A stretch of 64,000 bases of DNA from an uncultured Candidatus Binatia bacterium (lineage in GTDB: Bacteria > Desulfobacterota > Binatia > Bin18): positions 3,232,001 to 3,296,000 of the forward strand of contig OZ241744.1 of NCBI GenBank assembly GCA_965200965.1, written 5' to 3'. The notes under the pieces were generated by a model. That model did no database searches. It saw only the letters and a program-made list of their open reading frames with translations, and was not told where the DNA came from. Both the position numbers and the translations under genes were made by a program. Every line of letters starts with the position of its first letter. Position 1 is the stretch's first letter. Positions 57,065-64,000 of the stretch are shown in pieces.

Positions 57065-57245
57065 TCATTGAGCCTGGTAAAGTGGAATGTGCTCAGTGCG
57101 CTCTTGGGAGGATTTTGCCTGTTGCGACAGACTGAACGTGTTTGAGGATTTCGGCGCTGTAGTAGCGATTGGCGCACCTATCACAGGCTCCAATCAGAAC
57201 ATCCTCCAGGATGACAAAGCTGGTTCTGTGTTTGAAAGGGGAATT
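57065..57245 (-). pseudogene. YgiT/MqsA-type zinc-finger remnant (N-terminal CxxC lost, frameshift)
   Basis: FKH...FVILEDV.IG.CDRC..RYYSAE.LK; with one base removed continues ..PERTEHIP. Confidence 0.6.
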
Positions 57246-57668
57246 ATAGCCCAAACGTGGCACGGGGCTTTTCGGCACACAATCCTGGAATCGGAATGAG
57301 GACAAAACCGTGTTCGTCGACGCTCATGGCTTGACCTCTTGCAATCGTATTCGTTCCTTAACGTTCCGGTCATGCTGCCAAAACAGCGCCTTGGCGAGCA
57401 CTTTCGGGTCCTCCGGCATAGGGTGGGGCAGAGTGCGTGCGCTTGGATTGTTTCGTGGTCTTCTCAGCCGCCATTTCCGTTCTCCTTCCCCTCTATTACA
57501 TGACTCGTGACGAGCATTTTTCCAGCGGGGCATAATTAATCATGCTTTGGTTCCCTGCTGATGTGTCTCCCATCATTGAGCCAAAAGATACGCATGTCGA
57601 TTCTCCTTATCAGAATGGTATGGCCGGCGGGGTCTTGGGTCTGGTGGTCTTCTTCGCTCGTACCATGT

Positions 57669-60184: not shown

Positions 60185-61600
60185 ATGGCCTACGCAACAA
60201 GCATTCGATCCGAGCGCTTTGTGTTTGCCGACCTGCGCGAGGTCCTGGCCAAGGCCAATGAGGACAAATCAGGCGATTGTCTAGCTGGGATCGCGGCCTG
60301 CTCCGAACAGGAACGGGTCGCCGCCAAATGGGTCCTGGCCGACATTCCCCTGTCTGATCTGCTTGCCTGCCCCTTGATTGATCCCGATCAGGACGCGGTC
60401 AGTCGCCTGATCCTCGACAGCCTGGACCACGAGGCGTTTCACACGCTGGCCCATTTGACCGTTGGGGAGTTTCGGGAATATCTCCTTGACGACGCAACGG
60501 GTCAGCCACAACTCCAGCGCCTGCACGGGGCTATCCCGCCCGAGGCCGCAGCTGCGGTAGCCAAACTGATGAGCAACAAGGACTTGGTGCTGGCCGCGGC
60601 CAAAGTCCGCACCGTCACCCGCTGTCGCAATACAATGGGTGGGGCCGGGGTGCTGGGTATCCGTCTTCAGCCCAACCACCCCAGCGATGACCTGGGGGGT
60701 ATTCTGTTATCAGCCGTAGACGGCCTGCTGTTTGGCTGTGGGGATGCGGTGATTGGCGTCAACCCGGCCACCGAATCGGTTGACACCGTGTCAGCCATCT
60801 TGCACGGCCTCGACCGGCTGATCGAGACCTGTCAGATTCCGACCCAGGCCTGCTGCCTGGCCCATATCAGCACCCAACTGGCCAGCCTGGAGCGGGGCGC
60901 GCCGGTTGACCTGCTGTTCCAGTCGATTGCCGGCACGGAGGCGGCCAACGCCAGCTTTGGCATCACGCTGGAGCTGCTGCGTGAAGGACAACAACGGGTG
61001 CTGGAGCAGCATCGTCGGCGCGATGTGGAATGGGTCGGGGACAACGTGATGTATTTTGAGACCGGCCAGGGCAGCGCCCTGTCGGCCGATGCCCACCACC
61101 GGGTTGATCAGCTGACCCTGGAAGCCCGGACGTATGGGCTGGCACGGGTCTTTCAGCCCTTTCTGGTCAACAGCGTGGTCGGCTTTATCGGACCCGAATA
61201 TCTGGCTGACGAACGCCAGATCGTCCGCGCCGGCCTGGAAGATCACTTCATGGGCAAGCTGCTCGGTCTGCCGATGGGCTGTGATGTGTGCTATACCAAC
61301 CACGCTGCCGCGGACCAGAACTCGGCAGACAATCTGCTACTCCTGCTGGCCGCGGCCGGCTGCAACTATTTCATGGGCGTGCCGGGCGCAGACGACATCA
61401 TGCTCAACTATCAATCGACCAGCTTCCACGACGCGCTCGGCGTGCGCCGGCTGTTTCAGCTCACACCCGCCCCGGAGTTCCTGGCTTGGCTTGAGCAGAC
61501 CGGCATTTTTCACAATCGGCAGCCGGCCGAGGCCGACAGCCCGCTCCGCCAGCAGCTCGTTCGCCGTGTGCAGACAATTGAAGGGAGCCTCGGCGTATGA
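60185..61600 (+). CDS. eutB: Ethanolamine ammonia-lyase large subunit
   Basis: RLQPNHP.DD, GDAVIG.NP, MYFETGQGS, VVGFIGPEYL, GCDVCYTNH. Confidence 0.96.
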   Translation: MAYATSIRSERFVFADLREVLAKANEDKSGDCLAGIAACSEQERVAAKWVLADIPLSDLLACPLIDPDQDAVSRLILDSLDHEAFHTLAHLTVGEFREYLLDDATGQPQLQRLHGAIPPEAAAAVAKLMSNKDLVLAAAKVRTVTRCRNTMGGAGVLGIRLQPNHPSDDLGGILLSAVDGLLFGCGDAVIGVNPATESVDTVSAILHGLDRLIETCQIPTQACCLAHISTQLASLERGAPVDLLFQSIAGTEAANASFGITLELLREGQQRVLEQHRRRDVEWVGDNVMYFETGQGSALSADAHHRVDQLTLEARTYGLARVFQPFLVNSVVGFIGPEYLADERQIVRAGLEDHFMGKLLGLPMGCDVCYTNHAAADQNSADNLLLLLAAAGCNYFMGVPGADDIMLNYQSTSFHDALGVRRLFQLTPAPEFLAWLEQTGIFHNRQPAEADSPLRQQLVRRVQTIEGSLGV

Positions 61601-62376
61601 AACCTCCTGCTCACCACCCCCGTCAGGCCGACCTCATCCGAGCCGTTCGACACCGGACGCCGGCCCGCATCCTGATCGGCAGGGCCGGGCCCGCCTATCG
61701 GACCCATACCCAGCTCGCTCTGCGCCGGGATCATGCCGCGGCTCTTGATGCAGTCCAGGCCGAGCTTGAGCTTGAGCGAGACTTCGCTCCCGAACTGGTC
61801 AAGGGCTGGGGCTTGTTTATGGTGACGACCCGGGCCGAGACCAAGGCCGACTACCTGCTGCGGCCAGACCTGGGACGGCGTTTGAGTCCCCACGCTCGGC
61901 AACGCATCCAGGAGCGATGTCCACGCCGGGCTGACCTCCAGCTCGCCATTGGCGACGGTTTATCGGTGGCCGCGGTCAAAGCCCAGGTGCCGACGCTGCT
62001 TGATGAGCTGGCCCGGGGCGCGCAGCAGCAGGGCTGGCGCTTTGGTCAGCCGTTTGTGATTCGCCACTGCCGGGTGGGGGTGCTGAACGATATCGGGGAG
62101 ATTCTTGAGCCGAGTGTGGTGGTGTTATTGATTGGTGAGCGGCCCGGGCTGGCCACCGCCCGGAGTCTGTCGGCGTATATGGCCTATCAGCCACGCGCCG
62201 GCCATACCGACGCGGAGCGGAATCTCGTCTCGAATATCCACCACCGGGGCGTGACGCCCATCGCCGCGGCCGGACGCATTCTTGGGCTGGCGGAACGTTT
62301 GCGCCGCGCCCGGCACAGCGGGGTCAGTGTCAAGGAGCAGATCGCTGAACACCCGCACACGGGCCTGACAGGCTGA
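61597..62376 (+). CDS. eutC: Ethanolamine ammonia-lyase small subunit
   Basis: TPARI..GRAG, YL.RPDLGR.L, DGLS, LIGERPGL, RNLVSNI. Confidence 0.95.
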   Translation: MKPPAHHPRQADLIRAVRHRTPARILIGRAGPAYRTHTQLALRRDHAAALDAVQAELELERDFAPELVKGWGLFMVTTRAETKADYLLRPDLGRRLSPHARQRIQERCPRRADLQLAIGDGLSVAAVKAQVPTLLDELARGAQQQGWRFGQPFVIRHCRVGVLNDIGEILEPSVVVLLIGERPGLATARSLSAYMAYQPRAGHTDAERNLVSNIHHRGVTPIAAAGRILGLAERLRRARHSGVSVKEQIAEHPHTGLTG

Positions 62377-62412
62377 GGCCGAAGAGGGTGTCTGGACGAG
62401 AAAGGGGGAGCG

Positions 62413-62748
62413 GTGGAAGACACGCGCCAGGCTCAGCAGGAATCACAGCCGGCCCAGGAGTTGCCGTTGTGTCCCATCTGCAACCTGTACGCCGCCCAAC
62501 TGCGCCGCGGCAAGCTTCAATGCAGAAACTGCGGGTTTATTGAATCGTGACATGACTGTTCGTCCTCTGGCAGAGGACAGGCCGAGTGGATTCGGGCCTA
62601 TAGCGCCGAAGGCTTTGAGGCGCATGTGGAGCAACAGTTGGGGCTGCTTGACCGTCTCGCCGCGGCTGTACAGCGGCCGAGCGCGAACGGCTGGTCAAAC
62701 ATTTACGAATACCTGTTCCGGGAGCAGGCCTATCGCCAGGAGCAGTGA
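62413..62748 (+). CDS. Candidate selenoprotein, 111 aa: zinc ribbon (CxxC...CxxC) plus U-x-x-C motif, with TGA 62548-62550 read as Sec
   Basis: GTG after a purine-rich SD (AAGGGGG). Reads ...CPIC...KLQCRNCGFIES[TGA]HDC...; frame open 65 codons past the TGA; SECIS-like hairpin follows. Confidence 0.65.
62556..62580 (+). promoter_or_regulatory. Putative bacterial SECIS element
   Basis: Stem GTCCTCT/AGAGGAC (62562-62578) starts 11 nt after the TGA; small GG-containing apical loop; lower CT/AG pairing possible. Confidence 0.6.
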
Positions 62749-62850
62749 CCGGTCTAGGAGCAGTGATGAACTTTGGGACAATTGCGGCCAGAGCGATGGC
62801 CGTGGCCGAGCGAGCAGCGACTCCGTGGTGCCGAGGTCCCGGCCACCTTG

Positions 62851-63354
62851 TTATGTGCGTTGACCGAGGTAGCGCCGCAGGACATACAGCCCGTCGGGCG
62901 TATACGGCTCGGTCTGGGCATGGCGCAGGGTGTCGTGTGGCGTCAGCAGGATGACGCTTTCGATCTCTTCTACCTGGAGGCGCAGCGCTCCGTCGTAGAC
63001 GCAGGTGAAGGCACCGCCCCAGACATGATTGTGCTCGTCCTCAAAGGAGAACTCAAACAGCTTGGTCAGCGGCACGTCCCGAATGCCCAACTCCTCTTCC
63101 AGTTCGCGGACCGCCCCCTGTTCGTAGCTTTCGCCAGCCAGCACCACGCCGCCCGTAGCCAGGTCGTACCAGCCCGGAAAGACATCTTTGGTCATCGTCC
63201 GCTTCTGGACATGGAGTTGCCCCTGAGAGTTGAACACCAGGATATAGGTGCTGCGGTGCGGCAGACGCTTGGCCCGCATTTCACTGCGCGGGGCCGTGCC
63301 AACCAGCCTGTTGCGCTCATCCACAATGCCAACGATTTCGTCTGCGACGGTCAT
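62851..63354 (-). CDS. NUDIX hydrolase (YfcD/IDI-like)
   Basis: HR...I.VFN, QKR...KD..PG..D, GG.V..GE....A.RELEEELG; promoter TTGACA-17-TACCGT (63393-63365). Confidence 0.9.
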   Translation of the reverse strand: MTVADEIVGIVDERNRLVGTAPRSEMRAKRLPHRSTYILVFNSQGQLHVQKRTMTKDVFPGWYDLATGGVVLAGESYEQGAVRELEEELGIRDVPLTKLFEFSFEDEHNHVWGGAFTCVYDGALRLQVEEIESVILLTPHDTLRHAQTEPYTPDGLYVLRRYLGQRT

Positions 63355-63462
63355 GCCGGCGGCAACGGTACTGGGGCGCGCTAAGCCTGTCAAGCGAGCA
63401 TTACCCCGGGCCGGCGCGCTACAAACCAGGCAGAGCGCATTATTCACTCAGAGGACCGCGTC

Positions 63463-64000
63463 ATGTCAAACGCCCTTGCGATTTTTGCCAAAGCGCCGGT
63501 CGCCGGTCAGGTCAAAACCCGCCTGTGTCCGCCCCTGACACCCGAGCGTGCCGCCGAGCTGTCTCGGTGTTTTTTACTGGATACGCTTGAACGGATGTGT
63601 GGGCTGGAAGCGGTTGAGGTGTTCGTGGCCATCAGCCCGACCGACAGCGAGTCGCTCTTTCGCTCCTTGATTCCCTTTCCGGTCCGCTATCGGCCTCAGC
63701 GCGGTGCCTCGCTTGGCGAGCGCCAGCTCAATACGCTGGGCGATATGATGAGTGCCGGCTTCTCGCGTGCCCTCATCATTGGCAGCGATATTCCGACCCT
63801 GCCCGTGGCCTACGTTCAAGAAGCCTTCCGGCGGCTCGAAGACCCGGCCTGTGACGCGGTGTTCGGCCCCAGCCATGACGGCGGCTACTATCTGGTTGGC
63901 GCTCGCCAGCCACACCGCCGGCTGTTTGAAAACATTGTGTGGAGTACCCCACAGGTGTTACAGCAGACCCTGGCACAGGCGCGCAAGTACGGCTATGCGG
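63463..64000 (+). CDS. DUF2064/TIGR04282-family glycosyltransferase-like protein (3'-truncated by window)
   Basis: IFAKAP..G.VKTRL, Q.G..LGER, IIGSD.P.L, GP..DGGYYL.G, I.WST..VL..T. Missing from the ORF track because the stop lies outside the window. Confidence 0.88.
   Translation, partial: MSNALAIFAKAPVAGQVKTRLCPPLTPERAAELSRCFLLDTLERMCGLEAVEVFVAISPTDSESLFRSLIPFPVRYRPQRGASLGERQLNTLGDMMSAGFSRALIIGSDIPTLPVAYVQEAFRRLEDPACDAVFGPSHDGGYYLVGARQPHRRLFENIVWSTPQVLQQTLAQARKYGYA

Follow-up and report, generated by a model that had tools for sequence, protein, structure and literature searches.

The window analysed here, a 64-kb stretch of the one 3.62-Mb contig that constitutes the host genome, contains towards its end a reading frame that opens at GTG 62413 (+), meets an in-frame TGA at codon 46 (62548–62550) and continues to its next stop, also TGA, at 62746–62748. 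Retranslation reproduced exactly the frame given in a first-pass annotation of this DNA; the ORF list used there, said to miss the locus entirely, does contain a shortened 45-aa ORF at 62413–62550. The neighbouring genes are ordinary, namely eutB and eutC (60185–62376, +), a YfcD-type Nudix hydrolase gene (62851–63447, −) and a TIGR04282 glycosyltransferase-like gene (63463–64000, +). Elsewhere in the window, short ORFs without a Pfam match lie at 57093–57533 (−); the part at 57093–57305 (−) we take to resemble the second half of a YgiT-type zinc finger, possibly from a decayed toxin-antitoxin locus.

The first 49 codons (62413–62559, +) form the coding region of a family of small proteins, as judged by homology, conservation and a structure model. 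A Shine–Dalgarno-like run (AAGGGGGAG; 62402–62410, +) is seen ahead of the GTG start and presumably acts in ribosome binding; a similar purine run precedes the GTG in four relatives of the same genus. The encoded protein comprises a variable polar N-terminus, a CPxC pair (C20, C23), K34, a CxxCG motif (C37, C40) and the terminal residues S45-U46-H47-D48-C49, where U46 is the selenocysteine (Sec) predicted at the in-frame TGA (+) from the constancy of this codon in the family and from Cys in relatives. Codon 50 (TCG, 62560–62562, +) stands at the position of the family's true stop, which, to judge by the stops of relatives, has been lost in this lineage. A SECIS-type hairpin follows (62562–62578, +), with a 7-bp stem and a GGC loop, and beyond it are the junction of a deletion (62580–62581, +) and the decayed 3′ remnant of a tenA (thiaminase II) gene (62581–62757, +). 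We consider it very probable that codons 1–49 represent a real, apparently uncatalogued selenoprotein family in which the TGA is read as Sec.

The TGA, the His-Asp-Cys codons after it and the stem are identical in contigs spanning 62300–62900 from three sequencing runs of three studies (X2, X4 and X11), of which X2, a sponge metagenome, is possibly the source of the assembly. Run X13 gave no contig at the locus, and runs X14, X15 and X18 gave none spanning it. Constancy across three runs indicates that the TGA is not a sequencing error for TGC or TGT, a possibility that the first-pass annotation had raised.

Removal of two broken loci (G004 and G018) and seven duplicates left 31 distinct intact loci, and each of these keeps the first TGA. 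At the three codons that follow, His is encoded in 29 loci (CAC 18, CAT 11), Asp in 31 (GAC 27, GAT 4) and Cys in 30 (TGT 15, TGC 15), with free variation at third positions. A second stop is then reached at +4 or +5 in 30 of the 31 (TAG in 25, TGA in three and TAA in two), the exception being the window genome. The earlier suggestion of conservation past the TGA holds, therefore, for the H-D-C residues, with their synonymous changes and second stop, and fails for the tail beyond, which is no family protein. Over a core of 30 codons, the window genome differs from four same-genus relatives by 7–9 synonymous and 1–2 non-synonymous codon changes. A search pattern placed upstream of the TGA retrieved 23 metagenome loci, and these too have TGA at this position without exception.

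Of 56 genomes in the order, 17 gave a match; the TGA is present in 15, and the other two hold a degenerate copy (G004) and a copy broken after C-G-Y (G018). The G004 copy (L084; G004:C1:3160710–3160802) has TGG at the Sec position, has lost the first CxxC and shows no clear hairpin, and is likely to be a pseudogene. The search of the order found no family gene in the near-complete congeners G002 and G007 or in 28 genomes of the sister genus g8. The family is lost or degenerate in three of the seven other genomes of the genus and, on this pattern of loss, the gene is dispensable in the clade concerned. In a class-level search of 251 genomes, TGA forms are confined to the family f1, and other families carry Cys forms (22 read); a phylum-wide search of 401 genomes gave no family-level match outside the host's own taxonomic family.

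These data could in principle be explained if the TGA were a real stop, closing a 45-aa zinc ribbon with four Cys, and if the downstream conservation reflected an RNA element or terminator. Such a ribbon is complete without the residues past the TGA, TGA is the genome's most frequent stop, closing 1002 of its 1823 long open frames, and 69 of the 70 database proteins have E-S or D-S as their last residues, immediately ahead of the Sec position, although their own stop codons are not visible in protein records and gene callers halt at any TGA. The explanation is nevertheless very improbable, as the three following codons vary only synonymously in nearly all loci, the second in-frame stop varies amongst TAG, TGA and TAA whereas the first TGA is constant, the Cys and Asp of a sister family align on U and D, and no terminator-like site was called at the hairpin. 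Two of the database proteins are hypothetical proteins at NCBI. Also amongst database proteins are P0011, which has a Sec-branch-like core with Cys at the Sec position and lacks the Asp at +2, and P0072, apparently a frameshifted family member.

The hairpin described in the first-pass annotation (GTCCTCT-GGC-AGAGGAC, 11 nt after the TGA, with G first in its loop) was located at 62562–62578. According to the text of PMC13188914, the bacterial SECIS consensus has a loop of 3–9 nt with G within its first two positions and a spacing of 16–37 nt; the criteria drawn from this source also include a stem of 4–16 bp and an energy of at most −7.5. The locus hairpin agrees with these, its 7-bp stem and GGC loop folding alone at −8.6 kcal/mol, with the first loop G after 18 nt from the TGA. 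A Watson–Crick stem of at least 7 bp with a loop starting in GG, 16–22 nt downstream, accompanies 45 of the 113,131 TGA triplets in the genome (0.04%). The wider 76-nt stretch is no more stable than shuffles (z = +0.62), so that the signal lies in the local hairpin and not in overall folding. A genome-wide scan for TGA plus hairpin was too noisy to list the selenoproteome.

In relatives, the first base of the hairpin coincides with the final base of the true stop, which leaves the hairpin 3′ untranslated; the distance to the loop G is 18 or 21 nt. Amongst 26 distinct rows, 95.6% of cells are paired, and four of the seven pairs show two-sided changes, in 15 such cells; none of 500 shuffles reached this level, in a test that kinship inflates, that derives the structure from the same, related sequences and that excludes L042, where the hairpin is absent. 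Slid registers pair at most 78.6%. A second covariation measure, the number of further pair types, gave no support (6 versus 7.3 in shuffles). Under a single rule the hairpin is found at 30 of 32 TGA loci versus one of 114 Cys loci; the two TGA loci that fail are L042, which has none, and L109, which has a broken pair. The SECIS-like hairpin proposed earlier is thus conserved and covarying in relatives, and SelB would very probably bind it and deliver Sec-tRNA at U46. A ribosome translating the gene of a relative would insert Sec, followed by three or four more residues, and stop just before the hairpin; in the window genome, translation would continue through the hairpin and yield 111 residues. 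As the hairpin of relatives lies outside the coding sequence, their alignment amounts to a clean natural mutagenesis experiment on a bacterial SECIS.

The machinery for Sec insertion, which the first-pass annotation had advised looking for, is encoded in the genome. Profile searches identified selA (E 3e-156), with selB and selD both above cut-off, and a tRNA-Sec (72 bits; anticodon TCA, read as UCA) sits beside selA. The selD gene carries its own TGA, with the same GGC triloop 17 nt after it; TGA also occupies TxxU or UxxC sites in five redoxin genes, where hairpins follow at a similar distance. The redoxin/peroxiredoxin gene at 1301688–1302050 (+) of the contig has a TxxU TGA and a hairpin, yet an in-frame TAG 11 codons later, and is probably a selenoprotein pseudogene. 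Four other redoxin genes with an in-frame TGA (TxxU or UxxC), at contig positions 2709335, 1317287, 3312768 (+) and 444373–444744 (−), are of known selenoprotein kinds. In CMD and molybdopterin searches of the genome, the matched parts were free of internal TGA codons. Since 54 of the 56 genomes from the order possess selA, its co-occurrence with the family is non-discriminating at this level.

An altered genetic code in which TGA stands for Cys or Trp would be in keeping with the Cys that aligns to it and with the TGG of the degenerate G004 copy. It is extremely improbable, given that ordinary genes adjoining the locus end in TGA, that TGA is so common a stop in the genome, that the tRNA with the UCA anticodon is called as tRNA-Sec and lies next to selA, and that the hairpin is specific to TGA forms. 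Insertion of Sec remains the preferred reading of the TGA.

The 65 codons past the TGA were described in the first-pass annotation as protein-like, which is true but misleading, as codons 57–111 are a tenA remnant. A search of 61 genomes splits the query, residues 1–49 matching the small gene and residues 56–111 matching the ends of frames of 220–350 codons. In four same-genus relatives the gene order is eutB, eutC, the small gene and, directly downstream, an intact tenA of 223 aa. Comparison by blastn with L022, L024 and L025 shows that 494 nt have been lost at 62580/62581, taking with them the intergenic region and most of the tenA gene; contigs of runs X2, X4, X11 and X12 span this junction. 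The remnant has undergone further losses of 1 nt and 17 nt, and a change of TGG to TGA at 62746–62748 ends the frame ahead of the old stop, TAG, at 62755–62757. Against the TenA model TIGR04306 the tail scores 17.8 bits, with 130 required, over model positions 144–186 of 208. The genome retains an intact tenA paralogue, near 97360–98016 of the contig. As read from these alignments, the 111-codon frame is a chimera whose 62-codon tail is real DNA and not a conserved family protein; the tail is probably neutral baggage. The 111-aa product put forward earlier cannot stand as the family protein, since relatives stop at U-H-D-C or one residue later and the tail matches the TenA C-terminus, and the peptide suggested for proteomics is TenA-derived and nearly unchanged in the intact TenA of relatives, making it a poor family marker. 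A lost stop combined with a deletion can in this way mimic a long selenoprotein.

Strains X11 and X12, from one study, have also lost the stop, as TTG, and share the deletion, with tails that differ by indels. The product is 111 residues long in the window genome and 114 or 180 when the strain differences are applied; identity of the tail to that of the window genome is 28/62 residues in X11 and 45/62 in X12, versus 32/33 in the core. This argues against a functional fusion, in which the tail would have been recruited and placed under selection, and the fusion is moreover absent from all relatives: the full 111-aa query gave no full-length homologue (none of eight candidates, proteins of 61–196 aa) and otherwise N- or C-terminal pieces only. 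Such a fusion is improbable, although neither the loss of the stop nor the 494-nt deletion nor the pair of compensating deletions of 1 and 17 nt has closed the frame, a mild oddity inseparable from chance, and although X11 regains the same C-terminal frame.

A loss of stop and the destruction of the adjacent gene, in a genus where three of seven other genomes have lost the family or retain it in degenerate form, might also be expected if the family were a real selenoprotein and the copy in the window genome a young pseudogene, decaying with tenA under relaxed selection. We regard this as unlikely, while allowing it a real chance. The window genome, X11 and X12 all retain the four CxxC cysteines, the Lys, S-U-H-D-C, a perfect stem and the ribosome-binding run, and the core has an excess of synonymous differences from congeners. 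In addition, C-terminal extensions of about 20 residues are carried by some Cys forms and by a TGA form from the Chloroflexota, described below, so that a free C-terminus is not obligatory. A probably functional 49-codon gene with a probably neutral tail is the reading adopted here. Neighbours of the small gene outside the genus include genes for enoyl-CoA hydratase, NIPSNAP, CoA-transferase III, Glu/Leu/Phe/Val dehydrogenase and cytochrome c assembly; as these vary, no pathway is indicated.

A large homologous family has Cys at the Sec position, as the first-pass annotation had indicated. A pattern scan of GTDB genomes, blind to TAA or TAG at this position, gave at least 119 matches, with Cys in at least 115, TGA in at least three and one chance match. 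Amongst the matches listed, the Cys form occurs in small proteins as CxxC-x8-C-K-x2-CxxCG-x3-S-C-x-D, the Cys codon being TGC or TGT, and its hosts are mostly Acidobacteriota, with Chloroflexota, Planctomycetota and archaea also represented. Profiles of the Sec and Cys forms align over 30 columns with 96% probability (E 9e-10), placing U on the last Cys, with the Asp likewise aligned. In 43 jointly aligned rows, every sequence keeps the four CxxC cysteines together with the Lys, Gly, Ser, Cys/Sec and Asp. The two branches can be told apart in 144 distinct cores, amongst which kin are not independent: Cys precedes the Lys in 119/120 Cys forms versus 0/24 Sec forms (Gly33 at the locus), and the Sec forms have His at +1 (23/24 versus 0/120) and Cys at +3 (22/24 versus 0/120). 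The UxxC motif emphasized earlier therefore holds for most Sec forms but is not strictly required, two of the 24 having Arg at +3. The sole Cys form without Cys before the Lys, L281 (G760:C11:8600–8695), ends S-C-C-D-TGA, and no SECIS-type hairpin is seen there. Two Cys-form copies lie within 1 kb at L240 (G487:C4:870404–871361), the second with a long divergent tail.

A TGA form is also found in the Chloroflexota, in a genome assigned to Candidatus Limnocylindria (L118:1156–1309), where U-H-D-R is followed by 19 residues. Its stem is unrelated in sequence and has the same spacing, and selA and selB are present in its genome; three Cys-form genomes of its class have no selB over cut-off. The L118 frame overlaps the start of the next gene, presumably one for a macro domain protein. 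In this class the family is present in 55 of 251 genomes, with TGA only in G468, and no TGA form was found in 60 relatives of G468. The U-H-D pattern occurs in one of 351 Chloroflexota genomes, alongside two unrelated matches with one mismatch. L118 thus stands as a lone record, possibly a misbinned one. In a tree of 69 cores (29 columns), the 23 other Sec forms group at 100/100 and L118 is a long branch of unsure placement, so that one and two origins of the Sec form are not separable.

The structure model is a small beta-ribbon of two strands with a mean pLDDT of 83 (67 for the last five residues). A profile search of solved structures retrieved zinc ribbons (best E 1.3e-5); Foldseek gave no match at E 0.001, and VIA, likewise without a significant match, reached a best Z of 3.1, in rows that are mostly zinc ribbons. 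A FYVE match (Pfam, E 6e-4, below cut-off) was rejected as generic Cys spacing. With good confidence, C20, C23, C37 and C40 are predicted to bind one Zn (or Fe) ion in this beta-ribbon, a rubredoxin-like iron site being possible. The Lys, Ser, Cys/Sec and Asp are invariant in both branches yet lie outside the four-Cys site, which suggests that U46 is the reactive residue. Sec normally marks a chemically active residue, and its predicted presence at U46 suggests which residue is functional across a large class of zinc-finger microproteins.

The mechanism favoured here, with a confidence that falls a little short of even, is a redox switch. In the Cys branch, the Cys before the Lys would face the last Cys across the beta-hairpin, the two forming a cross-strand dithiol/disulfide pair. 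In the Sec branch, this Cys would have been dropped and replaced in function by a selenenyl-sulfide of U46 and C49, acting as a faster switch that modulates partner binding. The placing of residue 33 opposite U46 is inferred from zinc-ribbon geometry, and the lack of the +3 Cys in two of the 24 Sec forms means that a U–C ring is not universal. More tentatively, the reactive pair may have been relocated within one of the smallest folds known, from a cross-strand Cys–Cys pair found from haloarchaea to Acidobacteriota to a terminal Sec-His-Asp-Cys, in Binatia and perhaps independently in Chloroflexota. If so, the last Cys of HVO_2523-like microproteins would be redox-active and this widespread class would consist of redox switches.

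Alternatively, Sec is inserted but U46-H47-D48-C49 forms a second metal site, for Zn, Cu or another soft metal, and the protein is a metal carrier or sensor with no redox switch. Sec, His, Asp and Cys are common metal ligands, His at +1 appears exactly with Sec (23/24 versus 0/120), and the Asp at +2 is invariant in both branches; one subgroup, moreover, lies directly after a cytochrome c assembly gene (L039), with similar ORFs in L040, L042 and L043. Against this, it is unusual for four residues in a row to hold a single ion within a monomer, and most neighbours are unrelated metabolic genes. A second metal site is somewhat less probable than a redox pair moved to U-x-x-C, which is preferred; what remains is taken up by other uses of a reactive selenol.

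The 49-aa protein has no match in NCBIfam 20.0, and no selenoprotein model there matches any of 16 members, including the models for FmdB, UXX-star and KCU-star selenoproteins, which no family member matches. None of the 119 prokaryotic selenoprotein families in a 2026 inventory (PMC13188914 Table 1) has an S-U-H-D-C motif. A literature search found no description of the family, although it may be listed in the family table of BSepDB (PMC13326102) or the figures of deep-Sep (PMC12013277). The first-pass annotation had not recognized the family, in agreement with the catalogues checked. Zinc-ribbon selenoproteins are known as a kind, and the S-U-H-D-C family is apparently uncatalogued in these inventories; it adds a selenoprotein family missing from the PMC13188914 inventory and from NCBIfam 20.0.

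Several known selenoproteins share features with the family. The dual CXXC motif small (seleno)protein OS_HP3/DW (NF041197) is likewise small, with two CxxC pairs and one Sec (PMC13188914), but has an RxU/GxU motif and, by its model name, Sec between the CxxC pairs; the locus is unscored by it at E up to 1 (40 bits required). Zinc ribbon-containing (seleno)protein DG (NF049953) also combines a zinc ribbon with Sec, but its model spans 172 positions with a GUxG motif and leaves the locus unscored (130 bits required). The FmdB-family putative regulatory selenoprotein (TIGR02605) has a zinc ribbon and Sec in a different motif, UxxU. In UXX-star and KCU-star selenoproteins, to judge by their names (PMC13188914 Table 1), Sec lies a few residues from the C-terminus, implying a SECIS beyond the stop as in the present family, but the motifs differ. 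TenA (thiaminase II; TIGR04306, PF03070) is the source of codons 57–111, where about a quarter of the gene is left, partly out of frame, and no functional TenA is encoded.

The closest comparison is with the HVO_2523 family (NF041914), one-domain zinc finger microproteins, which is the top family for all 18 bacterial Cys-form relatives tested, at 25–27 bits (best E 7e-7, with 27 bits for the first) versus a cut-off of 60. Deletion of HVO_2523 in Haloferax volcanii is described as impairing growth on glycerol and swarming and as raising biofilm formation (PMC6562870; PMC12949519), phenotypes that fit a regulator; the consulted text of these two papers gives no molecular function. The Sec family consequently bears on a large zinc-finger microprotein class whose archaeal member has deletion phenotypes and, in that text, no mechanism. 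No selenoprotein form of the HVO_2523 family appears in PMC13188914 Table 1. The Sec form is unscored by NF041914 at E up to 1, and differs from the HVO_2523 family in lacking the Cys before K and in having U-H-D-C instead of C-S/A-D-aromatic. On these profile comparisons, it is the predicted Sec branch of the HVO_2523-like zinc-finger microproteins, related to NF041914 without being a member of it.
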